DNA of 48,743 nucleotides from Clostridia bacterium (GTDB lineage: Bacteria; Bacillota; Clostridia; Christensenellales; UBA1242), in NCBI GenBank assembly GCA_045645925.1, contig JAZRJQ010000010.1:1-48743 (forward strand), given 5' to 3'. The notes below the pieces were generated by a model. That model was not told the DNA's origin. It made no database searches and saw nothing but the letters and a program-made list of their open reading frames with translations. Shown here piece after piece: positions 2,904 to 29,043 of the stretch. Both the position numbers and the translations under genes were made by a program. Positions within the stretch are counted from its first letter, which is position 1, and each line of letters opens with the position of its first letter.

Positions 2904-4092
2904 TTTTAACACCACCTTTTCGGCTTTTATACTTATGCTTTGTCACCGTTCCACAAATTTCGGTTAATTCATATTTTATTAATTTGTGCCTAAAAACATC
3001 GGTTAATTTTGTTTTGTTTTTTTGTGTTTTTATTGCCGACACAACCACTACCACCAAAAGCACTGCCTGAAAACTCAAATCGGCTATAATAAACGGTAAA
3101 CTTGTTATAATGTTTATTGCCCTAATCAAATTTAAATAAAGCAAGGCAACACTAATTAAAACACTTATAACAATAACAAACATTGTTACAATCTTGTTTT
3201 GAATATTAAAACATTGTCCAACAAGTTTTGCTGAACTAAGCATAACAATTCCAACTTGCAAAAACAAAATTATTAACCAAAACAATATATTTAACCAGTT
3301 AATGCTTCCGTTCAAAGTGTTAATGCTTGTGTACAACAAAAGTTCGCTTAGTGCCAACGAATGATTTAAACCAGTGTCACCAAATACTGCTGAAAAAACA
3401 ATATAAAAACCAACAACAAAAATATCTGTTACCAACAACCATGTTAACACTGTTTTTGTGGTTTTGGGTTTAAATTCAACCTTGCCCATAAGTAAAAATA
3501 AAATTAAATAATCACCAAATGTGAATGAACACCTAAACACCCCCACAAAAACACCAGCAACACCATTTTCAAAAATTGGCAACAAATTTGAAAAATCAGC
3601 TTGCGTTGCTGGAATTACAACAGAAACAACCAAAGCCAATGCTATAAGCCAAATAAAAAGTTGGATTGTTCTGCCAAAAGTTCTAAAATCTTTTAATACC
3701 ATATAACCAATTAAAACTAACAACGGAATAACATACACAAACCAATTAATATCGTCAAACAAAGTTTCATTAAAGTAATTATGAATTTCTTTTATAATTA
3801 AAATTCCTTTACAAAACAAATGCACTGCTAACAAAAAAATTAAAATTTTTGCAACAACTTTACCAAACGCCCTAACAATTAGTTGTTGCAATGTTACATT
3901 TGGATTGTTTTTCATAACACCCAAAACAATTGCACAAAACAAAAAATCAATAGCCAAACCTATTGCAACCGAAATATAAACATCACTAAACGCATATTTG
4001 GCAAACAAAGCAGGAAAAACCAAAAAGTTTAAGCCAATTGTTGTAATACACAAAATTAGTGCACACTGCATTCCACTTATCTTTTTTGTCAT
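2896..4092 (-). CDS. spore germination protein, GerAB/APC-permease-like B subunit
   Basis: 398 aa, about 10 TM polytopic protein between the A and C subunits. Its start abuts the stop of the A subunit. Confidence 0.85.
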   Translation of the reverse strand: MTKKISGMQCALILCITTIGLNFLVFPALFAKYAFSDVYISVAIGLAIDFLFCAIVLGVMKNNPNVTLQQLIVRAFGKVVAKILIFLLAVHLFCKGILIIKEIHNYFNETLFDDINWFVYVIPLLVLIGYMVLKDFRTFGRTIQLFIWLIALALVVSVVIPATQADFSNLLPIFENGVAGVFVGVFRCSFTFGDYLILFLLMGKVEFKPKTTKTVLTWLLVTDIFVVGFYIVFSAVFGDTGLNHSLALSELLLYTSINTLNGSINWLNILFWLIILFLQVGIVMLSSAKLVGQCFNIQNKIVTMFVIVISVLISVALLYLNLIRAINIITSLPFIIADLSFQAVLLVVVVVSAIKTQKNKTKLTDVFRHKLIKYELTEICGTVTKHKYKSRKGGVKNA

Positions 4093-5544
4093 TTACCCCA
4101 TTCTCCTTCTGTTTTTGTTAGTAATTGATTTTGGTCTGGTTTTCATGCTTGTTAGTGGCTTTTTAAAAACTGCATCTTTTAAATCGTTTTGAACAATTGG
4201 CGAAAATGGACTTAAATATGGTGATTTGTAATTATCAAAATCATTTAAATATAAAATCAAAAACAAACTAAAAATCACAATTCCATAAAACCCTAACGCA
4301 CTTCCAATAATTGTATAAATCACTCTCAAAATACTTAACTGATTTGCTTGGTCAGGAATTGTGTAAAGCGTTATACCACTTAACGCAATAATCATTACAG
4401 CCGGTGGCGAAATTATTCCAGCCTTAACTGCTGTGTCACCTAAAATCAGTGCACCCACAACCGACAACGCAATTCCTAAATACTCTGGCATTCTTAAACT
4501 TGCTTCATACAAAATTTCAAACAGCACAAGCACAAACAAAATTTCAACCACTGGGCTTAGTGGCAATCCTTGTGTTGAATTTATTATTGTTACCAAAAAA
4601 GAAAGTGGCACTGCTTTGTAATGATACATTTGCATTGCAATATAAAGACCAGGCAACAACATTGTTATAAAACAACTTGCAATTCTAAGCATTCTAACAA
4701 ACGTTGCGTGCGATGCATCTTTATAGTAATCATCGGCAGCCTGAAAATCTTCCATAAGCACAAACGGCAAAGTTATTGCAAGTGGCGAACCATCAACCAA
4801 AATAATAATTCTGCCTTCAAGCATTTTTGCACAAGCAATATCTGGTTTTTCAGTGTTGCCAAGTTGCTTAAACATGCTTGCCTTGTGTGGCTTTAAAAAC
4901 TCTGCAACATAGTAGCTATCAATAATTCCATCAATGTTAATACTTTTAAGTTTGTTAATAATTTTTTTAACCAACGTTTTATCGGCAACATTTTCTAAAT
5001 ACATAACACACACATCTGTGCTTGTTATTTTTCCAACTTTAAGCATATGTGTTTTAAGTTGGTTGGTTGCAAAAATTTTACGAATTACTGCAATGTTTGT
5101 TTTTATGTTTTCATTAAACCCTTCACGTGGACCTTTTAAAACTGCACTTGTTGGTGGTTCGGTTAAACTACGTTCCTTGGGGTTGTCAAGTTCCAAAACA
5201 AACACTTTGTTGGTATTGTTAAAAATTAACACAACTTTTCCTTTTGTTATTTCATTTATAACATTAGAAAAATCAGTTTCTGTTTTCACTTCCGGAAACG
5301 AAATCACATTATTCACAACATAGTCAACCTGATTTATTTTTGGCATATTTTGTGCTGTTTGCATGGGTTTTATGACATAATCTGCCAATTGTACAACATT
5401 AACCATACCTTTCAAATACATCACAGCAACATCGTAATTACCAGTTTTAAACTGCTTAACAATAACATCGTTGCTACAAAAAAAAGATTTTTTTATGTTT
5501 AAAATATTAACTTTTAAAGACTTAGAAATTTGCATAACCAACAA
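4093..5544 (-). CDS. spore germination protein, GerAA family A subunit
   Basis: 483 aa. Conserved GerA signatures (TEPPTSAVLKGPREGFNENIKTNIAVIRK; C-terminal TM bundle). The start could instead be the ATG at 5535. Confidence 0.9.
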   Translation of the reverse strand: MLVMQISKSLKVNILNIKKSFFCSNDVIVKQFKTGNYDVAVMYLKGMVNVVQLADYVIKPMQTAQNMPKINQVDYVVNNVISFPEVKTETDFSNVINEITKGKVVLIFNNTNKVFVLELDNPKERSLTEPPTSAVLKGPREGFNENIKTNIAVIRKIFATNQLKTHMLKVGKITSTDVCVMYLENVADKTLVKKIINKLKSINIDGIIDSYYVAEFLKPHKASMFKQLGNTEKPDIACAKMLEGRIIILVDGSPLAITLPFVLMEDFQAADDYYKDASHATFVRMLRIASCFITMLLPGLYIAMQMYHYKAVPLSFLVTIINSTQGLPLSPVVEILFVLVLFEILYEASLRMPEYLGIALSVVGALILGDTAVKAGIISPPAVMIIALSGITLYTIPDQANQLSILRVIYTIIGSALGFYGIVIFSLFLILYLNDFDNYKSPYLSPFSPIVQNDLKDAVFKKPLTSMKTRPKSITNKNRRRMG

Positions 5545-5640
5545 CTTTTCCTTAAAAAAATAGTTAGTTTAGTTTGCGAAATTTTACCAAATTTATGCAA
5601 ATTTAATTATTGCACAGGCATTAAAAACAATTATTAAAAA

Positions 5641-5670
5641 CAAAAAAAGTTGGAGCAAAACTCCAACTTT
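5641..5670 (-). terminator. rho-independent terminator ending the surface locus
   Basis: Stem AGTTGGAG / CTCCAACT with a 4-nt loop and T7 on the minus strand, 11 nt after the stop of 5681..7789. Confidence 0.6.
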
Positions 5671-5680: not shown

Positions 5681-7789
5681 TTAATTTGCAGAATCACCTA
5701 AGTTAATAAGTGTTAAACAATAAATTGTGCCATAGGTTGTTGTGCTTACACGTTGGCAAGTCCAACCAATAACCAAAATGTTTGCATCACTTATTCCACA
5801 TGCTTGTTTAACTGCTTTACACTCTGTTGTAACTTGTTCATCGTGAGCAACATCGTTAACAACAGGCAATGTGATGTAGTCACCACTAAAAGCAACTTCG
5901 TAACTTAAATTACCACTTTCCAACATATAATTAACAAGTTTGATATATTCTTCACGTGAGTTAATAATTCTTAAATCTGTTCCGTTATATGTTGAATTGC
6001 CATAGAAATAATAATCTTCATTAGCAGGCATTGAATTATCATAAGCTTCGTCAACCGGATAGTGCGTTGCCGCAATATAACTATCTGAAACCAAGAAATA
6101 TTTATAACTTAAAAATTCTTTTGAATTAAAGTTTATTGCTTCGCCACCAGTTGTAAAATCACCAACACCCGTTTTTGTTACTGTCCAAGTAATATCTACA
6201 ACATACCACTTACCATTTAACAAAACTTTGTTCCAAGCATGCAATCCTTGGTACACACCATTTTTATAAATTTTACCTGTTATACGTTTACAATCAATAC
6301 CTTCCATGTTGCATAGCAATGCAAATGTTTTAGAGAATCCATCGCAAACTGCCAAGCCATCGTCTAGTACACCTTCCAAATAGAAACTTGTGTAACTAAT
6401 AAAACTTGGTGTTGCGTTTGCATCTAAATCAACAATTTGGTCATCATAAACAGAGTTAAATGAAACATAATCAAAAATACTTAAAATTTTCTCATAGGTT
6501 GTCATTTCGTCCATAACAATTTCACGTAACACTTTTTTAGCATCTTGATATAATTCATACGCTTTGCTTGTGGTTCCATTAAACAATGGTGTTGCACCAC
6601 TTTCAACAACATGATAAAGTTGTTCACCAGTTTCAACATATTCAGTAACTGATTGTTTATCACTTGCAAAATTATCGTAAGTTTCAGAACGTTTTGTATA
6701 ATTTACTTGTTTATAGTATGGTGTATCAAAACTATTTTGAGTTCTAACTTTGTTTGTTGTGTTTACTGGTTGTTTTCCACCAGCAAATGTAAAGTTTATT
6801 GTAAAATCATTTTTGCTTGGATTTGATGCAGTAATGTTTGACAGGTTTGTGTCGTAATCACATGTTTCAGTAAAACTATAACATGCTTTTTCAACGGCTT
6901 TTGATAAATGATATAATTCAATCCTTTGGCCATACGAATAACCAACTGAACCATAAGTGTTAATTAGTTGTTGCATGTATGCATCAGAGAAATACACATC
7001 CAACTTATCAACTTTATAAATAAATCCATAATAAATAAGTTTGTTTAATTCTGCTTGGCTTGTGATGTTGTAATCACCAACAAAACCATCAATGTAGAAA
7101 TATTTTGAAGTATAAGAATTGTTTGTTTGATTTGTGTTGTAATAAATTTGTTTTGAAAGTGTTACTTGATTTTCACCACTTTCTACGCCAACACGAAACA
7201 AAACAACTTCATCATCGTCAACATATTCATCAAAATTAAACCCGTTAACATCTGTTTCAAAATATCTTAAACCCAACGCATTTGTGTAAAGTGAAACATA
7301 ATATTCTGTTGCCCCAGATACTTCGTTCCAACTTAGCACTTTATCGTTGATTGTTATGTTTTCAACAATGTTTGGCAAAGAGTTGTCAACCAACATTTGT
7401 GATTCAACACTTACACCTTCAGTTGAATTTAAGTAGGTTACAACATTACTTTTTAAACTATCATTGTACCCTTCTGCATAAGCAATTACGTAAAGTTTAT
7501 ATATTTTAACATCATCGTTTACAGCAGTTGAAAAGTTGCAATAGTTAATGTCGGCTGTTGCCGCAATTGTTTCGTACAATGTTGAATTTAAATAAACATT
7601 ATATTTTTCAGCATTTTCAACTGCATTCCAGTTAATTGTTTTATTTTCGGTATCTAAAACAACCACTGGTGTTTTTAAGTCAGGAGCAAACCACTCACCA
7701 AACGAACAGCCTGCCAACGAAAAAGACGAAAAAAACATAACTATTAAAGATAACAATGTAAGTAATTTCTTTTTCACTTTTTTCTCCAT
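5681..7789 (-). CDS. lipoprotein with two Fn3-like modules and a C-terminal transglutaminase-like (Cys-His-Asp) core
   Basis: Lipobox SLAGC at the N-terminus. Modules carry the xNW..V..A..Y.VY signature (INWNAVENAEKYNVYL; LSWNEVSGATEYYVSL). Transglutaminase-core motif: GLAVCDGFSKTFALLCN...GLHAWNKVLLNGKWYVVDITW. Confidence 0.8.
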   Translation of the reverse strand: MEKKVKKKLLTLLSLIVMFFSSFSLAGCSFGEWFAPDLKTPVVVLDTENKTINWNAVENAEKYNVYLNSTLYETIAATADINYCNFSTAVNDDVKIYKLYVIAYAEGYNDSLKSNVVTYLNSTEGVSVESQMLVDNSLPNIVENITINDKVLSWNEVSGATEYYVSLYTNALGLRYFETDVNGFNFDEYVDDDEVVLFRVGVESGENQVTLSKQIYYNTNQTNNSYTSKYFYIDGFVGDYNITSQAELNKLIYYGFIYKVDKLDVYFSDAYMQQLINTYGSVGYSYGQRIELYHLSKAVEKACYSFTETCDYDTNLSNITASNPSKNDFTINFTFAGGKQPVNTTNKVRTQNSFDTPYYKQVNYTKRSETYDNFASDKQSVTEYVETGEQLYHVVESGATPLFNGTTSKAYELYQDAKKVLREIVMDEMTTYEKILSIFDYVSFNSVYDDQIVDLDANATPSFISYTSFYLEGVLDDGLAVCDGFSKTFALLCNMEGIDCKRITGKIYKNGVYQGLHAWNKVLLNGKWYVVDITWTVTKTGVGDFTTGGEAINFNSKEFLSYKYFLVSDSYIAATHYPVDEAYDNSMPANEDYYFYGNSTYNGTDLRIINSREEYIKLVNYMLESGNLSYEVAFSGDYITLPVVNDVAHDEQVTTECKAVKQACGISDANILVIGWTCQRVSTTTYGTIYCLTLINLGDSAN

Positions 7790-7841
7790 ATATATTTTAT
7801 AACTTTTGTAATAGTATATTCATTAAAAACAAATTTAACTA

Positions 7842-9275
7842 TTACCTTTTCTGATTGTAGTTTATAAATTCAAATTTTTTCTTTTTCTTACGTCTGGTTG
7901 AAACAATAATAATAGCTAAAATTAAAATAACTGCAACACACGCAAACACAATAATCCACCAAATGTTAATATCGGTTTGTTGTTCTTCTTCGTGTTCACC
8001 TGTGTCTGGGAACGTTGTTGTTATATATTCAACCCAATTTTGTGGGGCGTTTGCCCAAATTTCACGGTTTTTTACAATACTTGGAATTGCTTCCAATGCT
8101 TCAATATCAACCTTTAAAATCGCATCGTTTCCACCAATAACTTCGGTTATTTTTGTTTCGCTAAACCTTAGCCAATTAATTAATGTAACCTTTTCGTTAG
8201 GCCACAAAACCTTACGGCAATAATAATAACCATCATCTTCTTTAACAACTGGTGTTGGATCGGTTGCGCTATTAGTATAGCCTGCTTCAATATCAGCATC
8301 ATACCTTTCCCAAACTTCGGTGTCTGGTTCAAAATAAATATAATCTTCGTATTCAACACCATTAACAATTAATGTTATTTTAAAACGAACATAAATTGTT
8401 AACCATTCATCAATATCGGTATCACCAGCAATTGAATTGCTATTACTTGCAACAATGTTTAGTGCAAACCTATCTCCCGGGCTAACATCTTTTGGAATTA
8501 GCTCACCAGTAACTTCGGTATCATAAAAAATATCTTTATTGGTCATGCTAACACTAACACGTATGTACTGATCAGCATAAGCTGTTGTATGCCTAATATA
8601 CAAGAACACACCCAAAGCAATAACAGCAATCAACATTAACACTAGCGCAACAGTTATAATAATTGTTATTATTTGCCTACGAATGTCAACAATATCTTTA
8701 ATACGCTGCCTGGAATACCTATAAACGTCTTCCATAAGTTGTTCGTTCTTTCTAGCAATACGTTCCGATCTTCCAATAAGCTTGCCGGTTCTATCTCTGT
8801 ACCCAATTTCTTCTTTTGTGTTACCTTGTTCTTCTTGCAAGGCTTTGTTTTTATCTTCAAAACTAGGTTCATCAGCCATAAGCTCACGTTTAATACGAGC
8901 TATTTTTTTCTTATCAATTTTTTGTTTTTCTTTTGATGCATCATTAGTATTTGCATCATCTTTTGATGAAACTTCTTCAAACTTAACATTATGTTTTTTT
9001 GAATCTTTCATTGCCTTTTCAGCTTTTGAAATAATGTCATCGTGCTCATGGCTGTTAACATCATAAGTTAGTTTTGGATTTTTGCCTATGTTTTGAACTT
9101 GTTCGTGAATATCTTCAAGTTTTTCTTTTGTTTTTTTGTGTTGAGCAACAGTTGAAATTTTTTCAGAAACTTTATTTATTTTTTTTGCAGCATCAGCAAA
9201 TTTAGCAGCAGAAGAAGATGCCGATTTTTCGGCATTAGTTTCAACTTTCCTTTTTTCATCTTTTTCTTCTGCCAT
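7842..9275 (-). CDS. bitopic membrane protein: K/E-rich cytoplasmic N-domain, TM, extracellular TasA-like beta domain, C-terminal TM plus poly-Lys
   Basis: 477 aa. About 200 aa of charged low-complexity N-terminus. TM IITIIITVALVLMLIAVIALGVFLYI. The ectodomain shares GYYYCRKV and IWANAPQNW motifs with 10254..10979. Terminal TM WWIIVFACVAVILILAIIIV is followed by RRKKKKK. Only a 13-nt gap to the upstream gene. Confidence 0.6.
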   Translation of the reverse strand: MAEEKDEKRKVETNAEKSASSSAAKFADAAKKINKVSEKISTVAQHKKTKEKLEDIHEQVQNIGKNPKLTYDVNSHEHDDIISKAEKAMKDSKKHNVKFEEVSSKDDANTNDASKEKQKIDKKKIARIKRELMADEPSFEDKNKALQEEQGNTKEEIGYRDRTGKLIGRSERIARKNEQLMEDVYRYSRQRIKDIVDIRRQIITIIITVALVLMLIAVIALGVFLYIRHTTAYADQYIRVSVSMTNKDIFYDTEVTGELIPKDVSPGDRFALNIVASNSNSIAGDTDIDEWLTIYVRFKITLIVNGVEYEDYIYFEPDTEVWERYDADIEAGYTNSATDPTPVVKEDDGYYYCRKVLWPNEKVTLINWLRFSETKITEVIGGNDAILKVDIEALEAIPSIVKNREIWANAPQNWVEYITTTFPDTGEHEEEQQTDINIWWIIVFACVAVILILAIIIVSTRRKKKKKFEFINYNQKR

Positions 9276-9288
9276 AATCTAAACCCTT

Positions 9289-10068
9289 TTAAATGTTACT
9301 ATCGCTACCTGCAAATGCTTCGTTAAACACACTTTCAACATTACGAATTGTTGTTACCATATATTCACCAGTTGTATCATCAGCACTTACTGGGATTTTT
9401 GCTTGGATTGCTTGAACTGAGAACCAGAAAGTTATTTTTGAACCCGAGAATTTGTTATCAACTTCGGTTGGGAAAATAAGGTTTTGACCTTTTGAGTAAG
9501 GATTTAAAAAGTCAATAATTGGACCAGTTTCACAATCAATATGGTCAACCAATGTGTTTTGAATATCGTCGTTATCCAAACTTTTACCACCAGTGTAGTA
9601 CCACCAACCAGTTGTTGTGTCTAGCACCCAAAGTGGCAAACTATATTTTTCGGTGTCAAACTTTAAGGCTTTATCAATAATTTGATTGTTCAAACTGTTA
9701 ATAAGTTCAGCAACTTCGGTGGTTGTTGCACCACTACTTTCAACCGAAATATTAAGTTTAACACGCAACAACGCAGGTGTTTTACTTTCCTGGAATTTAA
9801 CAGAAGCATAGGTTTTAATCTGCATTCCAGGCATTAATCTAACATTGTTTATGGTAAAAGGCAATTCTGCCCCATCTGGCAAAATTGTTCCATCAGTTCT
9901 TTCAGTAATGTTTACAACAACTGGGTCACCCAAAGTAACAACTGTTTCTTCACGATCAGTTGATGCAAACCACGCAAAAGTTGCGCCTGTAACCAACGAA
10001 ATGGCTAAAAGCACACTTAAAACTATTATTAAGCTTGTGTATTTGTTTATTTCCTTAGAAAATTTCAT
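9289..10068 (-). CDS. TasA/camelysin-like secreted protein with SipW-cognate signal peptide
   Basis: 259 aa. N-terminal hydrophobic segment ending in LVTGATFAWFASTD, then a beta-rich body with WWYY and a terminal VQAIQAK strand shared with its paralogs. GGGAGA SD. Confidence 0.7.
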   Translation of the reverse strand: MKFSKEINKYTSLIIVLSVLLAISLVTGATFAWFASTDREETVVTLGDPVVVNITERTDGTILPDGAELPFTINNVRLMPGMQIKTYASVKFQESKTPALLRVKLNISVESSGATTTEVAELINSLNNQIIDKALKFDTEKYSLPLWVLDTTTGWWYYTGGKSLDNDDIQNTLVDHIDCETGPIIDFLNPYSKGQNLIFPTEVDNKFSGSKITFWFSVQAIQAKIPVSADDTTGEYMVTTIRNVESVFNEAFAGSDSNI

Positions 10069-10253
10069 GTTTCTCCCATCAAACTTTTACATAAGCATAA
10101 TTACACATCTTACTCTCTAATAGTATATTAAATTTTTAGGTTTTAGTAAAATAAAATTCCCTAAATATATTTTATTATTATATATATATTTATTTAATTT
10201 TTTGTAACTTTTGCTTTTTATATTTCAACCCATCAGTTTTATAACATTTATAT

Positions 10254-10979
10254 TTAACTATTTAGCCAATTTTGTGGGGCGTCAACCCAAAGTAAACCTG
10301 CAAAACCACCATCATAACTTAAACTTTCAACAGTAAAAGTTAAATAACTCATGCCAGAATTGTTTTCAACGTTTAAAACACCACTTTTAAGTTCAACTTG
10401 TTCACACAAAAGAATATTGCTGGTTTCATCAACAATGTTGCAATAATACAAATATCCATCAGTGCCAAGTTTCCAGTTACCATGCTCAGCTAATTCAATT
10501 TCAACACTCTCACCATTTGCTTTTGTTAATGTTGCTTTACCCCTTACAACTTGCCTTGTTTTTAAGTTTGAAACATCCAATTTCACATTTTGAGTGTAAG
10601 TAACACCAGTTAATGTATTGCTTAAAACTTTAACACTAACATTATTGCTTTTATTTTCCAAAACTTTAAGCGAAACATTGCTTAACATCATCTGCTTGTT
10701 TTCGTTAAAAAATTGTTTATTGTTTTGCCACAAACCAATAAACGCACCAACAATAAAAACCAATAACAATAATACTACAAAAAACATCGCAATCAAGCCA
10801 TAATTCCACTTTTTTAAGGTGTAGATTTTATCTTTTAAAACTAGCACATTTTCATTGGTTTTAATGCTTAAATTGTTGTTTGAATTTTGATTTTTTTTGC
10901 TTGAATTTAATTCATTTTTTTGCGTTAACGCCAAGCCAAAATCCTCCTTTAATTTAATAAAAACACAAGTTTTATTCAC
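10254..10979 (-). CDS. membrane-tethered TasA-like paralog (no canonical SipW motif); 5' end uncertain
   Basis: 241 aa from a GTG with no SD. TM MFFVVLLLLVFIVGAFIGLW. Ectodomain has GYLYYCNIV and C-terminal LWVDAPQNW motifs matching 7842..9275. An internal ATG (Met65) is an alternative start. Confidence 0.5.
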   Translation of the reverse strand: MNKTCVFIKLKEDFGLALTQKNELNSSKKNQNSNNNLSIKTNENVLVLKDKIYTLKKWNYGLIAMFFVVLLLLVFIVGAFIGLWQNNKQFFNENKQMMLSNVSLKVLENKSNNVSVKVLSNTLTGVTYTQNVKLDVSNLKTRQVVRGKATLTKANGESVEIELAEHGNWKLGTDGYLYYCNIVDETSNILLCEQVELKSGVLNVENNSGMSYLTFTVESLSYDGGFAGLLWVDAPQNWLNS

Positions 10980-11040
10980 TTATAATTTTTAACATTTTGG
11001 CGTTTTATTATTCAAAATTTAACAACATTATTGCAACAAA

Positions 11041-11068
11041 AAAACCTGCAATTTTATTTGCAGGTTTT
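11041..11068 (-). terminator. rho-independent terminator after 11072..11767
   Basis: Stem ACCTGCAA / TTGCAGGT followed by T7 on the minus strand. Confidence 0.6.
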
Positions 11069-11071
11069 AAA

Positions 11072-11767
11072 TTAATCAGCAAGTTTTCCCCATGTTGGGT
11101 TACTGAAATTTTGTAATGGATTTTCAACGTTCATAATTTGGATTGCACTAACAATATAATCAATGTTAATATCTTTGTTTGCAAACACGTTTGTTAGTTT
11201 TGTGCTAATTCTAATTTGACCATTAATAAAGGTGTGAACATCTCCATCATATGCTGTTTTTGCTCTGATTTGGCCATCAATATTTTCACTAAACACCCAC
11301 CATTTTCCGCCATCTTCTTCACCAAAATCAACTTCAACCCAGTCAGTAGAAATTGGAGTTGGGGTTGTGCTACCATTATCAAATTCAACCAAGCCTTCTG
11401 TAACAATGTCACCACCAAGGTCGGTTAATGCGTTTGATGTTACTTTTAGTTTTGCCCTTACAAAAGCTGGTGACGAAGGTTTGCCTTCCATACCCATAAC
11501 AAAACCAAGTTTTAAGTTTATTTTTGTTCCTGGCAAAATGTCAACTTCATCAAGTGGCAAGGTTACAGTTCCTTGTGCCACACTCATATCGTCAGTAATA
11601 TAAATTTCAACAGGGTCAGAAAGTGTTACCCCTAACATTTCGGAAATAATACGAGTGTACCAAGCAAATGTTACACCTGCAACCAACGTTAGAAGCAATA
11701 ATGCACTTAAAACAATTATTATAATTCGTTGCGAATTAACTAAGTTGTCGCTTTTTTCTTCAAACAT
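11072..11767 (-). CDS. TasA/camelysin-like secreted protein with SipW-cognate signal peptide
   Basis: 231 aa. LVAGVTFAWYTRI motif after the hydrophobic core, KWWVF and VSAIQIM paralog motifs, AAGGAGA SD. Confidence 0.7.
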   Translation of the reverse strand: MFEEKSDNLVNSQRIIIIVLSALLLLTLVAGVTFAWYTRIISEMLGVTLSDPVEIYITDDMSVAQGTVTLPLDEVDILPGTKINLKLGFVMGMEGKPSSPAFVRAKLKVTSNALTDLGGDIVTEGLVEFDNGSTTPTPISTDWVEVDFGEEDGGKWWVFSENIDGQIRAKTAYDGDVHTFINGQIRISTKLTNVFANKDINIDYIVSAIQIMNVENPLQNFSNPTWGKLAD

Positions 11768-11839
11768 ACTATCTCCTTTTCTAAATTTTACAATAAATTT
11801 TAATAAAACACTAACATTTTTAACAAAAATACAATTTGT

Positions 11840-12544
11840 TTATGAACCAGCAGGATTACATGTTGGGCATGGTGTGCTAGCACCAACAACCTTTGTTCCA
11901 CATGTTGCACAGTCCCTAACATCATAATCAGCAATTCGTTGAACCCACTCATCTGGTGCATAATCTGCCCAATCTTCGTGTGTTTTATAAGCTTCGTAAT
12001 AACGTTGAATTGCATATACTGTTAAAGTGAATTTAACTGGTTGATTTTTATCAATATTATCAATACCATTAGTTACAACAATACCTGTGTTGAATGTTGC
12101 TGTAACATCTGGACTAATATATCCAACATAATAATAACAATCATCAGCAGAACTATAAATCCAACTTTGTTTACCATTAGCTTCGTGTTCAGCTGTTATG
12201 TGTAAGAGTGGTTCAACAACATGATAGTTGTCAACTTGATAATCTGTTGTAAGCTTTACCTTTATATAAGCTTCATCAGTATTTTCAGCACATTTTATGG
12301 TTGTAGGCATATCGTTATACATTTTATTTGGTTCCAAAATATCTCCCGGAACAGCAAGTGTTGTTTGAACATCTAAGCTAATATCTCCAACAATAAAAAC
12401 TTTTGTTCCTACTTCACTTTCACCAAACCAAGCCGAAGTTATAAAGTAGAAAATTAAAAAACACAAAACAGCAATAATAAGCAAAGATGTCATTTTGTTG
12501 AAACGACTTCCAAGATTGTTATATTCAAAAACATTTTCTTCCAT
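11840..12544 (-). CDS. TasA-like secreted protein with C-terminal CxxC-x10-CxxC tail
   Basis: 234 aa. Degenerate signal motif FITSAWFGESE. CYYYVGY and VYAIQRY paralog motifs. Ends in DCATCGTKVVGASTPCPTCNPAGS. Strong AAGGAGG SD. Confidence 0.6.
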   Translation of the reverse strand: MEENVFEYNNLGSRFNKMTSLLIIAVLCFLIFYFITSAWFGESEVGTKVFIVGDISLDVQTTLAVPGDILEPNKMYNDMPTTIKCAENTDEAYIKVKLTTDYQVDNYHVVEPLLHITAEHEANGKQSWIYSSADDCYYYVGYISPDVTATFNTGIVVTNGIDNIDKNQPVKFTLTVYAIQRYYEAYKTHEDWADYAPDEWVQRIADYDVRDCATCGTKVVGASTPCPTCNPAGS

Positions 12545-12600
12545 AATCTTTGCCTCCTTTTGTTATTTTGTGTTTCACATTTATAAAATAATTTTAAATA

Positions 12601-12790
12601 TTTAAAATTTGTTATCTTGATTTAAGACAGCTTTTCTAATAAACCCTTATAAAAAATGTGATGTGCGCAAATTTGTTTTGCGTATTTAAAATTTGTTATT
12701 TCAAATTCAAGTAATTATTCTAATAAATCCTTATTTTTAAAATGTGATGTGCGCAGTTTTAAATTTGCGAGTTTAAAATTTTAAATCGAT
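12601..12790. repeat. tandem direct repeat, two ~85-bp units plus a partial third (module A of an intergenic repeat family)
   Basis: TTTAAAATTTGTTAT occurs at 12601 and 12685. AATGTGATGTGCGCA occurs at 12655 and 12741. CTAATAAA(C/T)CCTTAT is also duplicated. Confidence 0.75.
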
Positions 12791-12815
12791 GTACAAAATT
12801 TATTTATTAGCAATA

Positions 12816-12860
12816 GCAAATTTTCAACTGTTTGAACGAAGTGAGTTTTGAAAAATTTGT
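12816..12860. repeat. conserved hairpin module (core TGTTTGAACGAAGTGAGTT), copy 1 of 3
   Basis: Arms GCAAATTTTCAA / TTGAAAAATTTGT flank a 19-20 nt conserved loop. The same core recurs at 41118 and 41291. Confidence 0.7.
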
Positions 12861-12928
12861 TATTGCGAGAAAATTCAAATAATTTAAAAAGTTATTTAAA
12901 ATTTTTTAAAGCAAATTTAAAACAAGCA

Positions 12929-13660
12929 CTACTTCCATGCAGTCCATTGTTGCAAGAAAGCAGCAGTTAAAACTCCAAATGGTTTATCAACGGCATCAAC
13001 CGGATTTTCAGGTGTGTCAACTTGATAAGCATTACCGGAATATGCCACAATTTCTGCCCTAACAAACACAAACACTTTTGAACCTTGCATACCCTCAGTT
13101 AAACCAGTCAAGCCGGTTGCAACGTTTTGTGTTGCACCACCAGCAAGTTGTGAATTGTAAAACGAATTAAAATAGTTTTGGTCATTAATTAATTCGTGGT
13201 CGTACAAATTAACCCAACCAGTTTGTTCAACTTTTAATGCACTAGTTGAAAGTATACTATAAGCGCCTTGCAGTTCATTTTCTTCGTGATCATACAAAAT
13301 TTCGTCGTTTGTTGCAACAACCAAACATCTAACAATTCCTGGAATATTGCCGGTGTTTTTAATTTTTATATCAATAGGAATTGTTGTGTTTAATGTGTTT
13401 GGCATTGTTGTTTGTAAAATTGTGCCAACCAAATAGGTTCCATCTTCTTGCTTGGTTCCATTAATTACTGTGTCACCACTATAAATTTCAATGCCAACTT
13501 CACCTATTGTTCCACCATCATCTTCTTTTGTAAAAGAATCAGTAAACCAAGCAAAAGTTACACCTAAAACAATCATAAGTGCAAACACAATAGAAACAAT
13601 CACAAAAAGTATGTTTTCAGATATTAAATTTTTTTGTTTGTATATCTTCATAAAGTACAC
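12929..13660 (-). CDS. TasA/camelysin-like secreted protein with SipW-cognate signal peptide
   Basis: 243 aa. VLGVTFAWFTDSFTKED motif and a beta-rich body. The start is ambiguous between GTG 13660 and ATG 13651. Confidence 0.7.
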   Translation of the reverse strand: MYFMKIYKQKNLISENILFVIVSIVFALMIVLGVTFAWFTDSFTKEDDGGTIGEVGIEIYSGDTVINGTKQEDGTYLVGTILQTTMPNTLNTTIPIDIKIKNTGNIPGIVRCLVVATNDEILYDHEENELQGAYSILSTSALKVEQTGWVNLYDHELINDQNYFNSFYNSQLAGGATQNVATGLTGLTEGMQGSKVFVFVRAEIVAYSGNAYQVDTPENPVDAVDKPFGVLTAAFLQQWTAWK

Positions 13661-13730
13661 ACTATCCCTTATTGTAATTTTACGTTTTTTTAAATTTTTT
13701 GTAAAGCAAATACATTAGTTGATAACGTTA

Positions 13731-13770
13731 AAAAATAGACATATAGTTTTTTACTATATGTCTATTTTAT
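13731..13770 (-). terminator. rho-independent terminator after sipW
   Basis: Perfect 13-bp stem ATAGACATATAGT / ACTATATGTCTAT followed by a T-run on the minus strand. Confidence 0.65.
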
Positions 13771-13786
13771 TATTTGCAATTTTGCT

Positions 13787-14269
13787 TTAACTATATACCA
13801 CAATAAACATTGCTAAAACAATGCAAACAGTAATAATTATGATATTGTCTTTAATTAAATCTAACAACACTCCAAGATATGGAAAATGACAGATAACCAC
13901 ACCAACAAAGTTTTTGTCGGTAACAGTTTCACGTGTTCCCAAATTTTCTTTTGCATCACCTTGGGTTTTTAATGTTACCTTGTTTCCATAAACTTGTTTT
14001 TCAACAACTCTGTGAGTTACATTATTTTCGCCAGCTTTAAATGTTACAATGTCACCAACTTCAACATCTTGAATTGGAATATGTTTAACCATAACAACAG
14101 TATCAACCGGCAATGTTGGAGTCATGGAACCCGTTAAAATATTTAAAAATTTATATCCCATAGCAAAAGAAGCAACCAATGTTATTAGTGCTGCCAAGCA
14201 TATATTTTTAATAATTATTAAAACAGATTTTACAATTATATTTTCTCTTTTGTAAATTGATTTTCCCAT
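13787..14269 (-). CDS. sipW: signal peptidase I, SipW/Sec11 (S26B, Ser-His) type
   Basis: 160 aa. N-terminal TM, catalytic-Ser box LTGSMTPTL, GDIVTF box, His box VTHRVVE, QGDAKEN box and a C-terminal TM. This architecture matches B. subtilis SipW. Confidence 0.85.
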   Translation of the reverse strand: MGKSIYKRENIIVKSVLIIIKNICLAALITLVASFAMGYKFLNILTGSMTPTLPVDTVVMVKHIPIQDVEVGDIVTFKAGENNVTHRVVEKQVYGNKVTLKTQGDAKENLGTRETVTDKNFVGVVICHFPYLGVLLDLIKDNIIIITVCIVLAMFIVVYS

Positions 14270-14350
14270 TAAGCCCTACCAAATTTATTTGTTGAGTTTA
14301 TGCCTTTATAAAGCCAATTTTTTAATTAATCACATAAATCAAATTCAACC

Positions 14351-14380
14351 TTGAAAACGTGGAATTAACCACGTTTTCAA
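14351..14380 (-). terminator. 12-bp hairpin between the giant gene and sipW (weak terminator or processing site)
   Basis: TTGAAAACGTGG / CCACGTTTTCAA perfect stem. There is no clean T-run, so read-through into sipW is likely. Confidence 0.35.
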
Positions 14381-14446
14381 AAGCCAAATTTGTAACAATA
14401 TTAGTATATACGTTTAAGCGTTTTTTTACAATCAAAATTTAGTTGT

Positions 14447-17400
14447 TTACGCTTTCCAAGTATAACCTGTCAACTGCCATTCAAACACTGGGTAACCATT
14501 GTTAATTGATGTATTATCGTTTTTGTAAATGCTACCCAAGCTTGTTGTAAGCGATGTTACAAGACTTGTTTTGTTTGCACTGTTAGATACACCAGTTAAA
14601 GCTTTGGTTGTATCGCCATGTGCACCATAAGCAATATTGATTGTACCATAAACATAGTAGTAATCGCTATTATAATAATTTGAAACGGTTGCCCTTGAAT
14701 CGTCAACTGCAACAATTGTACCAAATTTATTATCAGTGCCACCACCAGGTTTTGCTGTTCCACCAGAAACTGAAACAGTTCCTAGAACAACATAACAATT
14801 ATCAACTGAATTTGAGTTTGTTGAAGAGTTGTCACAAACTATACCTGCACCATAATGGGTTGCAGAACCATTTGCTAAACCCGAAACATACAACTTATCA
14901 ATAATTGCATAACAAGTTGAAACAGTTCCATCACCCAAGTTATCGGTATCCATGTTATTAACAACAATACCAGCAGCTTTTGCTTGAATTGAACTTTCAA
15001 ATGCTTGTGCCGTAATATTTCCTGTGCTGTAACAATAAGAAATTTGACTATAGTTAAATATTGCAATACCACCAACAAATACGCCATTTAATTCGCCTGT
15101 GTTGCCACAATTTTGAACAACTGCATTTTTGTTGTTTACGCTTACAATACCAGAAACATAGGATTTCATATTGCTAATTTCGGTATATTTCTTAATCAAC
15201 ATATTGTTTACTGAATTAATAATTGTTCCATTATTTTCAACTGCAATACCTGCAATACGTTGATCGTCTAATGGATAGTATAACAATTCGCCATCTTTTC
15301 CACTTAGAGTATATGGTTTTGTTTGAACATTTTCAATTCTACCATTGTTAACAATTGTTATACCACCCATTCTAACAGCTCTATATGAACCAGAGCCTGA
15401 GTTAATACCCACTTTTAAGTTTTTAACAACACCATTAGCGCCAATTTGCCTAATTAAAGCAACTTGGTTTAACTGACGGAATGCAAAACGAACATTGTTT
15501 AGTGAATATCCATCACCATCAATTGTTCCGTTAAACACATTACCACTCTTTCTTCCAATTACAAAGTCTGTAACATTTTGGCTTAAATCGGTTTCGCTTA
15601 ATGTGATGTGTTTACCGAACTTAAAGTAGCTATCTAAGTAGTAATCAATGTTAATAACATGTTTAGATTCTTCTAACATATAAGGATCTTCAGCTGTTCC
15701 ACTACCAGAAGCGAATATCCAACATTCACCTGTTTCAGATTCGCTATAAGCAGAAGTAATTTCTAGGTCGTTAATATCATCTTTAATATAACTTAACACA
15801 CTAACATCATATGAACCCATTGTTTGAATTTTAAATCTGTTAGTACCTGGTTTTAAGTTTGCAATAACAGGAGTTGTGCTAGTGTTATAGTAAATTCTAA
15901 CCCTTGTCCATGTGTTATTTGATGCATTTGTCCAACCAATTTCACCTGTTGAAGAAATTACATACAAATTAGATGGAGTTAAAGGAACTTCAATTGCAAC
16001 TTCGTTAGAGTTGTTACTCATTGAATATTTACCTTCAGCCGAATCATACAATCTATCTTCACCGTAAACTTGACAATAAACTGAGAATTCTTGACCAAAT
16101 GGGTTTGGTTGATCAGGAGCCAATGCATCTAAATCTGCAACAGCCTGAACATTAAACATAATGTAATTTGCATCCATTGAATAATAAGAATTTTCATCAG
16201 GAGTTGAGTAAGAATCAAATGCACTGAATGTGTGTTCTTTTATAACTTCACCATCTTTATTATACTTTCTTACAGTAAATTGATAATATCTTGCATTTGT
16301 TACTCTTGCAACAGCCACATTGTTAATAGGAGCATCGTTTTTAGTACCAATACTTAAATCGGCAACCGGAGTTGGCAATTTAAAGAATGTCATACTTGCA
16401 GGTGCAGAACTAAACCAGCAATAGTTACCAAGGTCAGCAAAGATATCTTCTTCATCTTCGCCTTCGCCACCTTCTTCACCTTCGTCAGGTTCTGTTGGTC
16501 CACCTTCCACAGGTGGTGCCTCTCCAGGACCTTCACCACCCTCACCTTCTTCGCCTTCACCTTCGGTTTCATCTTCAAAGTCGGTTTTTGTTACATATCC
16601 GTTTGAACCAAGATATGAAACTTCAATTTTATAATATCCGCTTGGAACATCTTCGTCTGTTCCAACCAATCTATAACCTTCTGGGCTGTTTACTGCTGCT
16701 GTAATATCATATTCTTCATCAATAATAACAGTACCAGACTGATCTGTTTCGTTTGCCAAACGTTGAAGTTTTACTGTAACACCTGTTGCAATAGCATAGT
16801 TAAGGTCGGTGTTATTCCATTTTATTACACCATCTTCAACACGAAGAAGTGGTCTTTCTAAACGTTTTGCCAAAATTTCAATACAATATTCACCGTTTAG
16901 ATATTCTTCTGATTCGCTGCCAGGAATTGCCCTAATTCTAATATTAAACACTTCATTTCCAAATGCTTCAGGAGCTTTGAATTCCAAATACCTAAAGTTA
17001 TCTTCAGAAACTAATGAATAACCATATTCTGTTTCACCTTCTTGAAGTTCATCATCTAATCTGTAAACTTCATATTCATAACCACCTTCAACTTCACGCC
17101 ATGAAAGTTTTCCGTTTTTCATAACAACATCTTGCGGTGGAAGTAGTCGTTTATAGAAGTGTGATTGATCTGGATCACCACTTACAAAGTAGTTTTGAGC
17201 ACCAACAACTTCGTTAGAATCAATTGTTCCTAATGGAGAAACTTTGATTGCATATTCTAATCTGTTTCCTTCTGCATCTGTTGCAGGATATAGTAACGAA
17301 TCTAAGTCATAGTAGCAATATCTTTCCTCATAAGTTACTGTTTCAGTATCTAATGATTCAAATTCGTATTCTCCTTCTTTTCTACACAAAATTTCAACAC

Positions 17401-20400
17401 TATACATTGTTGCTATTTCTGTAACACCAGCGCCATCATCATAAGAAACTCTTTCCCATCTAAACTTACCACCAACAAGCGACATTGTTGTGATTTTACC
17501 AAACTTATGAACTTTAAACGTTGCTTCGCCAGTAACAGTATTAACTGGGGCAGAAGTTGACGAAATTTTGGTTATACCATTACCAATTGCACGGCTTGTT
17601 ACGTAATAACTACCTTGTGGGAAATATCCATTTTCAATAAATGAATACATAAAGTAACCATTTTCAACTTTTACAAAGCTATAATGTGGATTTTCTTCAT
17701 CAGCACCAGCTGGTGTAAGAGTTATTAATTGTGCAACCTTTTTAGGGTCTCCTGTTGGGTTTTCAGCACTTTCATTAAATTGATATGTTGCGCCAAGTGC
17801 TGTACTCCAAATTCTAATTTCTTGGCTAACAGCTGTTTGAATTGTGCTAACAGCCACATTACCATTTGTCACCATAATGCTAGGTTTTGCCAACATTTCA
17901 ACTTCGCAACTATGGTCGTAATTACTAGTGAAGTAAACACCACTTGTCGAAGATCCAGAATCTGCTGTTCCTAACGCTTTAACTTTTAATGTATAAACAT
18001 AGCCAGTTTCAATTCCAATATCCACAACTGGAACTTTAAAGTAGGCATTAACACCACTTGTTTCAGTCATACTTTGTTCATATTTTGATCTATTTGAAGA
18101 ATTGATATAGAATTCCAAATCTTCTTTTTGTGCATCCATACAATCTGCAATAATTAAATAATCTGTAGTATAACCTGTTTCCATAAATACTTTTGCAAAG
18201 TATAAGTGGTCAGCATAAACCATTGTTACTTTTCCTTCAACCGGATAAACACCACCAACAGGGGTTTGTGGAGGTGGTAATTTGTAACCAGTAATTGCGG
18301 ACGAATAGTTTCCATTTAAAACAAGAAATACTTCCTGATTAAAATCTCCTCCCATTCCGGCACCACCACCCTCAGGAGGCATTTCTCCACCACCTTCCAT
18401 AGGATCTTCTAAAATTTGCGTGGTATATCTCCCGTTATATAGTGACATAATCTCTCCACCACCTTCAGGAGGCATTCCACCATCACCCATGTCTCCACTA
18501 CCAGATGATGAACGAGATCCCCCCATAAATCTAACTGCCAATGTATATGGATTATTTAATGTAGAGAAGTTGAAGTCATAATAATAAATAAGTTCTTTTT
18601 TAACTTCATCTAATTCAATTTTTAGAACAGTTTGGTTTTGATAAACTTTATTATTTATTCTAACTTCCAAATTCCTAAACAATTCCAAATTTTGCATCAT
18701 TGAATTTTCAGCCGCAGGATCACCCTTAGCTGCCAACAACAAACTAGAATATTTTTCCGAAATAAATTCGGCACCATTATTTAAATCTTTCAAATAAGCA
18801 TTAGTCAAAGGAATAGACCAACTCAAATAGCCGTTTCTAACTTTAAATTTACCACCTAGGGAATTTGCCTTTGGCGCTTTATATAATGTTTTAGTAATTG
18901 GTTCTGCAATACTTGAACTTAAACAATTTGAGCCATCTCCAACTGTGTAAATTTTTACTGTATAATAGCCACTAGGATATTTTGTTTCATCATCAAAATC
19001 TATACTTGCGTGCGTTGTTGTAAAACTTTCACAACTTGCATCATCTTCAAGTTCATCAGCTTTTCCTTCATAAATTTCAATCTTATAAGCAGTTCTTCCA
19101 TCAACTTCATCCCAAGAAGCAACACCATTAACTGTATAAATTGAAGATGGGCTTGCTAAAACTTTTGTTTCAAAACTTCCATTTCTACCACTTGTTAGGT
19201 ATGCCATCTCAGAAATTGTTGCAGTTGTACTACCTTCTGAAACAATATAGAATGTATATTCTGCAGCAGGAATATTGGTTGGCATCATAACACCACTTTC
19301 ACCAGCGTTATTTCCACTTGCAAAATACCCATCACGTTCAGCATCATATTTGTCGCTAAAAATTTTATTCATTTCGCCACTTTCGGAACGAATGATGTAT
19401 CCTGTTGCATTGTCAACTTTATCCCAATAAATATAACCTTCGCTAAGATAAGGAGCAAAAACCCCTTCTAATTTTTGAACCAACAACTCACCTGACAACT
19501 CGCTATCACCATAAATAATTGTTGTATCATCACCAGGTTCTTTAATTGCTTTAATTCGAATTCTATGGTTTAAGGTATCCATTATGATTTCATCATTAAT
19601 TTTTCTTGCATCCATTTGATCTGTGAACGAATCATAAATCACAGTTTCAAATTGAGGTTCATCTGTTCCTTCTTCGCCAGCGCCTTCATCTACTTGTTCG
19701 GGCGCATTAGGATCTACTGGATTTTCTGGATCTTCTGGAACTGGATCTTCTGGAACTATTTCAACTTGCCTTGAATAAGTTGCAAGTTCACCATCAATAT
19801 AAATTTGATATTGAACACCTTCTGCACCTTCATGTGTCCAATTTAAGTATCCATTTGTACTATAAAACTCTGTAACAGGATTTAATAATTCAAACTTTTG
19901 ACAATAACTTTCTCTTGGACTTAAAATGTAGTCTCCGGAATTTAATTTACCAACAACACCAAACCAAATTTTATATAATCCAGGCGTAAAATCTTCATCG
20001 TTAGGATATGTTACATAATACTCTGTTGCAGCTTTATCTAATTCGGTTGTATATAAATATTTGTCAGCACCTTCGGCAGGCTCAACTGCTTCATATGCAA
20101 CTTTAATTTTTGATGCCCTGTTGCCACCTTCATTATTTGCATTGTTCAAAATAAGTTTATTTTCTGCTCTAACATATTGATTTAAACTTAGTGCCGACAA
20201 AATTGTAACACTTATTGGATTTTCACAAACATCTCCGTTAATAAATCCATACGCTTTTTCACCAGAATCTTTTGTTCCTTTTGCAGAAATATTAAACTTA
20301 AATGTTCCAGAAACAGTTTTTCCATACTCAAACGCAATTGCTGTTGTAACAGCATTGTCGGTTTTTAAGTTGATTGCTCTGGTAATAACTTCTTCGCCAA

Positions 20401-24442: not shown

Positions 24443-24620
24443 AATTTTCACCCAATTAATATATTTTTGATGATATTATTCGACATAATCACTTGTATTT
24501 TACCAAAAAAGTTTTAAACAACAAAACGAAATTATAACAATATAGTTAATTTAATATATTTATTAAATATATTATTGCAGTTTTTAAGGGGTTTTATGTG
24601 AATTAAAATACAAAGAAAAA

Positions 24621-28413: not shown

Positions 28414-29043
28414 TTAATTAAAAATTTTGTCTATATGGTAATTCAACCTATCAATCAACATTGCAATAGCATAACCATCAATGGTTCTGTGGTTTGCTTC
28501 CACATTAAAGTTTACAAATTTTTTACCATCAACGTCTTTAATTTTATCCCAACCAAATCTTGGTATAAAATCGTCAGGATCACCAGTTTTTGGGTGTGCC
28601 AATTCAGTAACTTCCATCCAAGGCAAACAAGTGATGTAGCCAATACATTTGTTATCTCTTTTGATTGGGCTATATAACGAATTTTGTGCATCGTCAAGTT
28701 CTTTTGCCCTTTTGCAAAACTCTATAACATCATCCTTATACTCAACATCAACAAATCTAATGTTTCTTTCCCCTTTTCTAAGACAAACAAAGTTTATCCA
28801 TGTATGGTCATCAACAATAATTTCACCATCAACAACCCTAATGTTAAAATCTTCAACATCTTGTAATGCCTTAAATAAGGCATAGCCTAGTGAGAAATAA
28901 AAAGAAACGCCTTCTCTTTTTGCAAAACTATAAACCTTTGTAACATCAAGAGGTGTGGTAATTCCAAACCTTGGCATTTTATTTGCGCTATAACATTCAA
29001 AAAATTCTTTACGTTCCCAAGTATTTAAATCAATTTTTCTCAT
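28414..29043 (-). CDS. type-A chloramphenicol acetyltransferase family (CAT-like) O-acetyltransferase
   Basis: 209 aa. CAT-like start (MRKIDLNTWERKEFFECY), C-terminal catalytic-His region NHRTIDGYAIAMLI (compare HHAVCDGYH). GGGGAGA SD. Confidence 0.75.
   Translation of the reverse strand: MRKIDLNTWERKEFFECYSANKMPRFGITTPLDVTKVYSFAKREGVSFYFSLGYALFKALQDVEDFNIRVVDGEIIVDDHTWINFVCLRKGERNIRFVDVEYKDDVIEFCKRAKELDDAQNSLYSPIKRDNKCIGYITCLPWMEVTELAHPKTGDPDDFIPRFGWDKIKDVDGKKFVNFNVEANHRTIDGYAIAMLIDRLNYHIDKIFN

Follow-up and report, generated by a model that had tools for sequence, protein, structure and literature searches.

The window analysed here, a 48,743-nt stretch of contig JAZRJQ010000010.1 from a Clostridia bacterium, carries a locus of nine co-oriented genes between positions 5681 and 24451. 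We read this locus, with a probability of about 0.6, as encoding a TasA/BsaA-class system for a surface fibre or matrix; it would depend on SipW, operate without an ATPase or a sortase and have an expanded set of subunits. All nine open reading frames (ORFs) were confirmed on the minus strand, with the coordinates given in an earlier reading of the same sequence (referred to below as the original prediction). In the direction of transcription they encode a giant lipoprotein, a signal peptidase of 160 aa (SipW), six small proteins of 231-477 aa and a transglutaminase-like lipoprotein of 702 aa. The small proteins, designated T1, T2, T3, M1, T4 and M2 in gene order, comprise four predicted secreted paralogs (T1-T4) and two predicted membrane-tethered ones (M1 and M2). 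Unless stated otherwise, the features described below are on the minus strand.

Six TasA-like paralogs and a SipW-type signal peptidase

The four predicted secreted proteins, T1 (12929..13660), T2 (11840..12544), T3 (11072..11767) and T4 (9289..10068), each begin with a transmembrane (TM) segment that ends in a characteristic motif: GVTFAWF in T1, ITSAWF (followed by GESE) in T2, GVTFAWY in T3 and GATFAWF (followed by AS) in T4. The motif is invariant within each ortholog group, the T1 group reading GVTFAWF/L. The four hydrophobic N-termini ending in TFAW(F/Y) or SAWF of the original prediction were recovered in full. The signal is followed by a fixed order of elements that are collinear in the alignment, namely a G-x-V-x-I strand, LPG (LPG/SPGD), R.K, (W)WYY/YYY and V.A(I)Q. 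The common body motifs proposed earlier hold for this collinear series, with the exception of T1, which has VAYSG in place of AIQ. The probable true start of T1 is the ATG at 13651.

The model of SipW-cognate signals, TIGR04088 (cut-off 19 bits), had been suggested as a check of these N-termini and gave a mixed outcome: T1 tied with the cut-off (19.0 bits), T4 fell below it (17.5 bits), and T2, T3, M1 and M2 gave no match at E ≤ 1. With the motifs taken into account, a SipW-cognate-like signal is supported for the four canonical ORFs. T2 has, in addition, a C-terminal AP(D)EW motif that is common to M1 and M2 in the form AP(D/Q)xW. The T2 gene also encodes, at 11840-11905, a variable zinc-ribbon-like tail (CxxC...CPxC) that is present in five of the 11 orthologs, including that of the window (alignment A2). 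Such a tail would not be expected in a predicted secreted protein.

Direct comparison of the small proteins with curated models gave low scores. Against PF12389 (Peptidase_M73, cut-off 22.5 bits), T4 scored 15.7 and T2 14.7 bits, and the other four proteins gave no match. T2 also scored 17.5 bits against TIGR04090 (BsaA, cut-off 60 bits), over model positions 114-181 only, and T3, M1 and M2 had no direct match to PF12389, TIGR04088 or TIGR04090. The relationship was followed through intermediate sequences. Alignment A5, composed of the T4 family and the window proteins T1-T3, was searched as a profile against 1.84 billion representatives and matched 1,526 protein clusters at E ≤ 1e-3, of which 177 had E ≤ 1e-10, mostly over the full length. 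Alignment A6 comprises 75 sequences, that is, T4 of the window and 74 relatives. Sixteen of the 75 match PF12389 (best 2.1e-11), eight match the BsaA model TIGR04090 (best 8.6e-16), 22 match TIGR04088 and one matches the TasA model NF046066. Four relatives, P0210 (44.5 bits), P0187 (32.1 bits), P0198 and P0196, exceed the PF12389 cut-off, with matches that reach model position 75-117 of 196, and all four align with our profile along its entire length. After removal of the signal regions on both sides (profile and targets), the score of P0187 was still 47.2 bits (E = 1.5e-7 at library size). On this profile evidence, the six ORFs have transitive, body-level homology to the TasA/camelysin/BsaA superfamily through these intermediates.

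The A6 profile was also compared with all window ORFs of at least 60 aa in six frames. Exactly the six small ORFs came out on top, the next E-value being 0.12, in agreement with the earlier proposal that they form one TasA-like set. The HMMER E-values of the window proteins were 7e-49 for T3, 4e-24 for T2, 1e-13 for T1 (for which ortholog alignment A4 was also built), 6e-6 for M2 and 1e-3 for M1. The corresponding hhalign probabilities were 100% for T3, 99% for T2, 97.7% for T1, 97.0% for M2 (over 176 columns) and 97.6% for M1 (over 161 columns), and the claim that the two tethered ORFs are related to the canonical four is borne out by the last two values. T4 is itself one of the A6 sequences. 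Many of the superfamily relatives (P0078-P0162) are proteins of 550-830 aa with an N-terminal TasA-like domain and a long C-terminal extension, and others match at their C-terminus or contain 2-4 matched stretches. The superfamily thus has multi-domain members, some of them possibly adhesin-bearing.

The tethered paralogs both lack the TFAW motif. M1 (10254..10979) is predicted to have a low-complexity cytoplasmic head rich in K, N and S, a single TM segment and an ectodomain with DGYYYY and AP..W motifs. In M2 (7842..9275), a conserved cytoplasmic N-region of ~200 aa would be followed by TM1, a TasA-like ectodomain (VSPGD, DDGYYYCR, NAPQNW), TM2 and a KKKK tail. Within residues 1-200 of M2, the segments KIDKKKIERIKKELM and ERIA.KNEQLMEDVYRY.RQ are conserved and probably helical, with variable low-complexity sequence between them; this region had no family match. 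The literature found on TasA-like systems contains no description of TM-tethered TasA-like paralogs.

The peptidase gene (13787..14269) had been assigned to the Sec11/SipW type, and this assignment stands. The product passes the cut-off of TIGR02228, the archaeal/endoplasmic reticulum-type signal peptidase I model (73.7 bits, cut-off 51.85), and is far below that of NF046067, the Bacillus SipW equivalog (57.3 bits, cut-off 190). It is therefore a predicted SipW-type enzyme, and not an equivalog of B. subtilis SipW. A His box takes the place of the Lys box and the C-terminus is hydrophobic; the SM.P (Ser), GD..T, THRVV (His) and QGD (Asp) boxes, as well as the C-terminal TM segment, are invariant in 11 SipW orthologs. 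An exact look-up of the window SipW sequence in public assemblies returned no record.

Conservation, transcription units and lipoproteins

Homologs of T4 are rare: 29 were found in 5.8 billion proteins, all of them in metagenomes or metagenome-assembled genomes (MAGs). Relatives occur in 11 GTDB species, nine with clear orthologs (59-82% identity) and two with distant ones (29% and 34%). All 11 are represented by MAGs of gut Clostridia, recovered from sheep, goat, human (Hadza) and mouse; one is labelled Christensenella sp. UBA6345. Approximately ten species (loci L001 and L004-L012) share the gene order giant-sipW-T1-T2-T3-M1-T4-M2-transglutaminase-gerABC without change over the extent of their contigs, the giant gene being found upstream of sipW in L001 and L004-L009/L011. 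Every paralog constitutes its own ortholog group, with its own ortholog in each locus; compared with the window proteins, T3 is the best conserved (64-85% identity) and M1 the least (27-36%). The spacing between T4 and M2 is tight (13-49 bp) and conserved, and the transglutaminase gene is always located directly 3' of M2.

In two deeper lineages, L003 and L015, T4 is 34-39% identical and sipW-T1-T2-T3 is inverted with respect to M1-T4-M2. The transglutaminase gene and gerABC lie 3' of M2 in L003; the L015 contig ends inside the M2-like gene. A further syntenic example, L016, keeps the core. The eight genes other than the giant one stay grouped in all lineages seen. In L015, and probably also in L003, the giant gene does not adjoin them, and the view of its product as a core component was therefore rejected: the core comprises sipW, the six paralogs and the transglutaminase gene, while the giant lipoprotein is an accessory, clade-specific neighbour. 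The co-conservation expected for all nine genes thus holds for the closer species (approximately ten, with the same order), and in the deeper lineages it does not extend to the giant gene.

The locus is bounded by terminator hairpins, as had been stated. The upstream boundary is a terminator-like hairpin 3' of pheT (24618..24652; a 16-pair stem followed by a T-run), and the downstream one is a bidirectional terminator (5646..5670, both strands), after which gerA begins. Internal terminators were found after the giant gene (14349..14382; 14 pairs, five of them G-C), after sipW (a hairpin and T-run at approximately 13732..13768) and after T3 (11041..11068), the last being kept in L004 at 8986-9011. 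Since the position of the post-sipW hairpin is conserved and its stem carries compensatory changes in seven loci, sipW appears to be monocistronic.

A conserved promoter-like element precedes each of two gene groups. Upstream of T1 (13677..13705, alignment A10), the sequence TTTACA-17-TAAAAT was compared in nine loci including L003: the -35 hexamer is invariant and the -10 hexamer is invariant at four of six positions (variants are TACAAT in L004 and TAAACT in L003), that is, 10 of 12 hexamer positions overall. Upstream of T4 (10122..10150, alignment A11), TTTACT-17-TATACT is invariant at all 12 hexamer positions, again in nine loci including L003. By geometry and hexamers, both are predicted sigma-A-type promoters; no sporulation sigma promoter, with a CATA-type -10 (sigma-E or sigma-K), was found upstream of T1 or T4. 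The conserved internal terminators led us to reject the single-operon model implied by the original prediction in favour of at least four transcription units. Together with the two promoters, they define as units the giant gene, sipW, T1-T2-T3 and T4-M2-transglutaminase, with M1 possibly forming a separate one.

Two non-coding stretches within the locus should be mentioned. The predicted 5' untranslated region of T4 (~10069-10121; alignment A11) contains a block, GTAAGATGTGTAAC, that is mostly conserved in close loci and partly in L003, and that has no Rfam match. The T1-T2 spacer (12545..12928, without strand) is 384 bp long and contains imperfect repeats of ~84 bp (12585-12650 and 12669-12734 are 73% identical) as well as many short A/T-rich inverted repeats. 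As this spacer measures only 24-237 bp in orthologous loci, its length in the window points to a strain-specific insertion or expansion.

The transglutaminase-like lipoprotein (5681..7789) has the lipobox SLAGC, read directly from the sequence, and matches Transglut_core PF01841 with 47.8 bits (cut-off 23). Its Cys482-His517-Asp532 triad is invariant in 11 orthologs. The score against the MAG6410 lipoprotein equivalog (60 bits) is below the cut-off of 450. A literature search on SipW and transglutaminase yielded nothing relevant and no paper linking the two.

The giant lipoprotein (14447..24451) has the lipobox LFLGC, likewise read directly. The size of 3,331 aa given in the original prediction is that counted from the first ATG, at 24442; from GTG, the gene has 3,334 codons. 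A self-built hidden Markov model (HMM) of its repeats identified 19 units at an independent E-value below 1e-3, or 24 by a looser count, separated by acidic linkers of G, E, P and M. The same HMM found two to three units of this type in the transglutaminase protein and nothing else in the window. With Pfam fn3 (PF00041), the best unit reached 20.9 bits (cut-off 25), and two of 12 units had E < 1e-3; a search of the PDB with the repeat profile gave Fn3 domains at 4.2e-4 and 5e-3, and one ortholog carries no more than a 'faint' fn3 mark. With these PDB matches and sub-threshold Pfam scores, the repeats are classed as Fn3-like but divergent, and the Fn3 assignment made earlier is kept in this remote sense. 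The last ~440 (444) aa have weak relatives only, several of them with the GLUG motif PF07581, and a PDB sequence search with this domain returned nothing; this domain is GLUG-like, and probably forms a beta-helix. The giant protein is likely to be a membrane-anchored adhesin stalk.

The window has a G+C content of ~31%, and the nine-gene locus is located between gerA/gerB/gerC (1590-5544) and pheS/pheT (24663-28086). Based on this gene content (gerABC and pheS/pheT), the host is a spore-forming Firmicute. Even in the distant L003, gerABC still adjoins the locus. The region upstream of gerA (5545-5645) contains the element G[CA]ATA-N17/18-CA.A.TA, conserved in six orthologous loci where readable, which we take, by the B. 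subtilis consensus, to be forespore sigma-G/F-like. No LPXTG-like motif was found in the nine locus proteins and five flanking gene products, and none of the annotated window genes was recognised as encoding a sortase or a secretion ATPase, in line with the earlier statement. A tRNA scan and an Rfam scan of the window gave no match.

Further from the locus, three genes at 31404-35528 resemble an operon for an electron-bifurcating [FeFe] hydrogenase (an Fe_hyd_lg_C large subunit, a Nuo51-like protein and a 2Fe-2S thioredoxin-like protein). An Mrr-type restriction endonuclease gene (37527-38060) and a chloramphenicol-acetyltransferase-family gene (28414-29043) are accompanied by genes for an ABC exporter (35630-37495) and a UvrD-like helicase (29295-31349). 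Three successive minus-strand ORFs at 40244-43802 (209, 346 and 354 aa) have no Pfam match at 1e-4, and are adjoined by a gene for an SPFH/Band-7 protein with a double zinc ribbon (43944-45056).

Proposed assembly model and alternative explanations

For the SipW-dependent fibre or matrix system that we favour, we infer SipW cleavage, polymerisation, a heteropolymeric composition and distinct roles for M1, M2 and the two lipoproteins. The precursors of T1-T4 would be exported by Sec and held by their N-terminal hydrophobic segment until SipW cuts them after the T-F-A or S-A motif. The freed N-terminal strand (G-x-V/L-x-I) could then insert into an adjacent subunit and complete its beta-sandwich, in the donor-strand exchange known from TasA and BsaA. 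M1 (one TM segment) and M2 (two TM segments and a cytoplasmic domain), having no cleavage motif, would remain uncleaved and membrane-bound, and might nucleate, terminate or anchor the polymer in the manner of TapA or of the basal subunits of sortase and chaperone-usher pili. The transglutaminase-like lipoprotein, predicted to be extracytoplasmic and with an intact triad, may cross-link or process the subunits. The giant Fn3-repeat/GLUG-like lipoprotein would be an associated long adhesin, specific to one clade.

The fold of two proteins was modelled with AlphaFold2. The T4 model (predicted local distance difference test, pLDDT, 66) is a beta-sandwich with one long helix, and its residues 23-67 are disordered; this disorder in the monomer is the sole indirect cue on donor-strand exchange. 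The M2 ectodomain (pLDDT 75.6) was also modelled as a beta-sandwich, with the first strand packed back in cis, and among its Foldseek matches a self-complemented FimA pilin ranked first (E = 4.9e-3, probability 0.72). Matches of both models were generic beta-sandwiches, such as capsid jelly-rolls, cohesins, arrestin/AP2-mu and FimA.

Several of the results weigh against the proposed fibre or matrix system. In none of the six small proteins did a direct score exceed the curated cut-off of PF12389, TIGR04090 or NF046066, so the PF12389/TasA HMM check suggested for the six ORFs came out negative. For neither model did a Foldseek search of the PDB return a match at E ≤ 0.001; the TasA fibre structure 8aur_A was third for T4, at E = 0.047 and a TM-score of 0.13, and 8aur was absent from the top 50 for M2. 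HMMER searches of the PDB with profiles A1-A4 and A6 did not retrieve any solved TasA, CalY or AbpA chain, their output being noise (WWE domains, a GFP-CD53 chimera and the TM region of FliL). When the ortholog profiles were aligned by hhalign to TasA, using a precursor sequence whose mature part was verified to be identical to 8aur_A, the signal region alone was aligned. Transglut_core domains are often proteases rather than cross-linkers. Finally, two independent assemblies (T1-T3 versus M1-T4-M2) instead of one heteropolymer are compatible with the internal terminators and with the inverted module of L003 and L015.

The last of these points leads to an alternative in which the locus encodes at least two separate assemblies, or a surface layer that is not filamentous. 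The TasA-like proteins would then be independent matrix or adhesion proteins, secreted or membrane-bound, with T1-T3 forming, for example, one homo- or heteropolymer and T4 with M2 another, instead of a single pilus with shaft, tip and anchor. This alternative, which we regard as unlikely, draws on the separate transcription units with their conserved terminators and promoters, on the inversion of sipW-T1-T2-T3 relative to M1-T4-M2-transglutaminase and on the self-complementation of the M2 model in cis. Against it, the eight core genes are found together in every lineage, and the maintenance of each paralog as an ortholog group argues for non-redundant, cooperating roles. The small proteins might also be camelysin-type (Peptidase_M73) secreted enzymes or SipW-exported peptide precursors instead of structural subunits. 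The weak matches to PF12389, a 'camelysin metallo-endopeptidase' family, and the label 'predicted ribosomally synthesized peptide with SipW-like signal peptide' given by the Joint Genome Institute to two homologs would fit this idea, but no HExxH or other metalloprotease motif is visible on direct reading of the six sequences, the proteins are predicted 230-260 aa beta-sandwich domains and not peptides, and the peptidase label of CalY is itself a likely misidentification (PMC11580942). We consider such a function very improbable.

A different question is whether the structure belongs to the spore, with TasA-like proteins cross-linked by transglutaminase in a coat, exosporium or appendage layer. 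The locus is always directly upstream of gerABC, even in L003 with its inverted module, the host is a spore-former, and the PDB name of TasA is 'Spore coat-associated protein N'. TasA was first described as the spore-associated CotN, and Tgl-type cross-linking of spore coats is known. However, a bidirectional terminator parts the transglutaminase gene from gerA, which has its own sigma-G/F-type promoter, the two promoters conserved in nine loci are sigma-A-like with no sigma-E/sigma-K CATA-type -10, and the lipoprotein and TM anchoring points to the cytoplasmic membrane. It should be noted that tasA of B. subtilis is sigma-A-driven and its product nevertheless reaches spores, so a spore location is weakened by these data rather than eliminated; we judge it to be quite unlikely. 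Of the two locations named in the original prediction, a vegetative-cell or a spore appendage, the former is favoured by the sigma-A-type promoters and membrane anchoring. Vegetative cells of an uncultured, spore-forming, Christensenellales-like lineage of gut Clostridia are the most probable site of expression of the SipW-dependent system.

A more specific form of this fibre system can be put forward only tentatively, and we think it possible rather than probable: an undescribed, multi-subunit, membrane-rooted pilus of the TasA class. In such a pilus M1 and M2 would form the base or terminator, with M2 linked to a cytoplasmic domain, T1-T4 would provide the shaft and minor subunits, the transglutaminase a covalent lock, and the clade-specific Fn3/GLUG protein a lipid-anchored adhesin that would be roughly 70-100 nm long. 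To our knowledge, the TasA-class fibres characterised so far (TasA, CalY, BsaA, AbpA) are essentially homopolymeric matrix filaments. If the proposal is true, a chaperone-free donor-strand system has evolved a division of labour like that of chaperone-usher and sortase pili, possibly with enzymatic cross-linking. The locus is in any case a concrete candidate for a surface structure of an abundant, uncultured lineage of gut Clostridia present in human, mouse and ruminant samples.

Comparison with known systems

Donor-strand exchange is given as the mode of polymerisation of TasA, BsaA and AbpA in the literature (PMC9674648, PMC9245690, PMC11580942). The novelty of the locus is tempered by a 2025 preprint (PMC11580942), which reports several BsaA/TasA paralogs per putative operon together with a signal peptidase and fibronectin-domain genes, and proposes donor-strand heteropolymers. 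The statements in the original prediction that known systems have one or two subunits and that the composition of the locus is undescribed therefore hold only in part; neither a transglutaminase partner nor TM-tethered paralogs were found in the literature.

The tapA-sipW-tasA operon of B. subtilis (8aur) resembles the locus in having a Sec11-type SipW beside its substrates, signals ending in T-aromatic-A-x-F, a G-x-L-x-L N-terminal strand after the signal and a sigma-A-type promoter, and in requiring no ATPase or sortase. It also includes TapA, a minor subunit with an accessory role in nucleation and anchoring. The window differs in that it has six paralogs, two of them predicted integral membrane proteins, compared to one major and one accessory subunit in B. 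subtilis; no TapA homolog was detected in it, and the transglutaminase-like and giant Fn3 lipoproteins are additional. The body similarity of the window proteins to B. subtilis TasA is not detectable directly. In B. cereus, the sipW-tasA-calY system (with CapP/BC1280) likewise has SipW-processed TasA-family paralogs and needs a further assembly factor. However, its paralogs are only two and mutually close, and it has no membrane-tethered member, transglutaminase or giant lipoprotein.

The archaeal bundling pili of Pyrobaculum (AbpA/AbpB) provide a precedent for a very divergent TasA-like pilin that is seen by sensitive methods only. They assemble by donor-strand exchange and are encoded in an operon of eight genes, several of which specify TM proteins of unknown role. 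In contrast to the window, there is no dedicated SipW, a single pilin occurs with a TapA-like protein, and the TM proteins are unrelated to those described here. With chaperone-usher and sortase pili the analogy is functional only, since the families are unrelated and the window has no usher, chaperone, sortase or LPXTG motif. Those pili are built from diverged subunits with fixed roles (tip, shaft, base or terminator); chaperone-usher subunits are Ig-like and completed by a donor strand, and the best Foldseek match of M2 is the FimA pilin mentioned above.

The sipW-bsaA-bsaB-bsaC locus of C. perfringens (TIGR04090) is likewise clostridial and combines SipW with several TasA-like paralogs in one operon, and BsaA polymers are very stable. 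The idea of a heteropolymer and the association with fibronectin-domain genes have already been noted for the BsaA family (PMC11580942), to which the window is connected by the weak TIGR04090 match of T2 and by eight A6 relatives. The differences are that the vWA protein BsaC is missing in the window, that no type IV pilus genes are nearby and that TM-tethered paralogs have not been described for the Bsa system. BsaA locks by an autocatalytic N-E-K isopeptide bond, whereas the window encodes a separate Transglut_core enzyme; if the tentative pilus model is correct, this transglutaminase would lock subunits covalently by enzymatic means, as BsaA does autocatalytically through its isopeptide bond.

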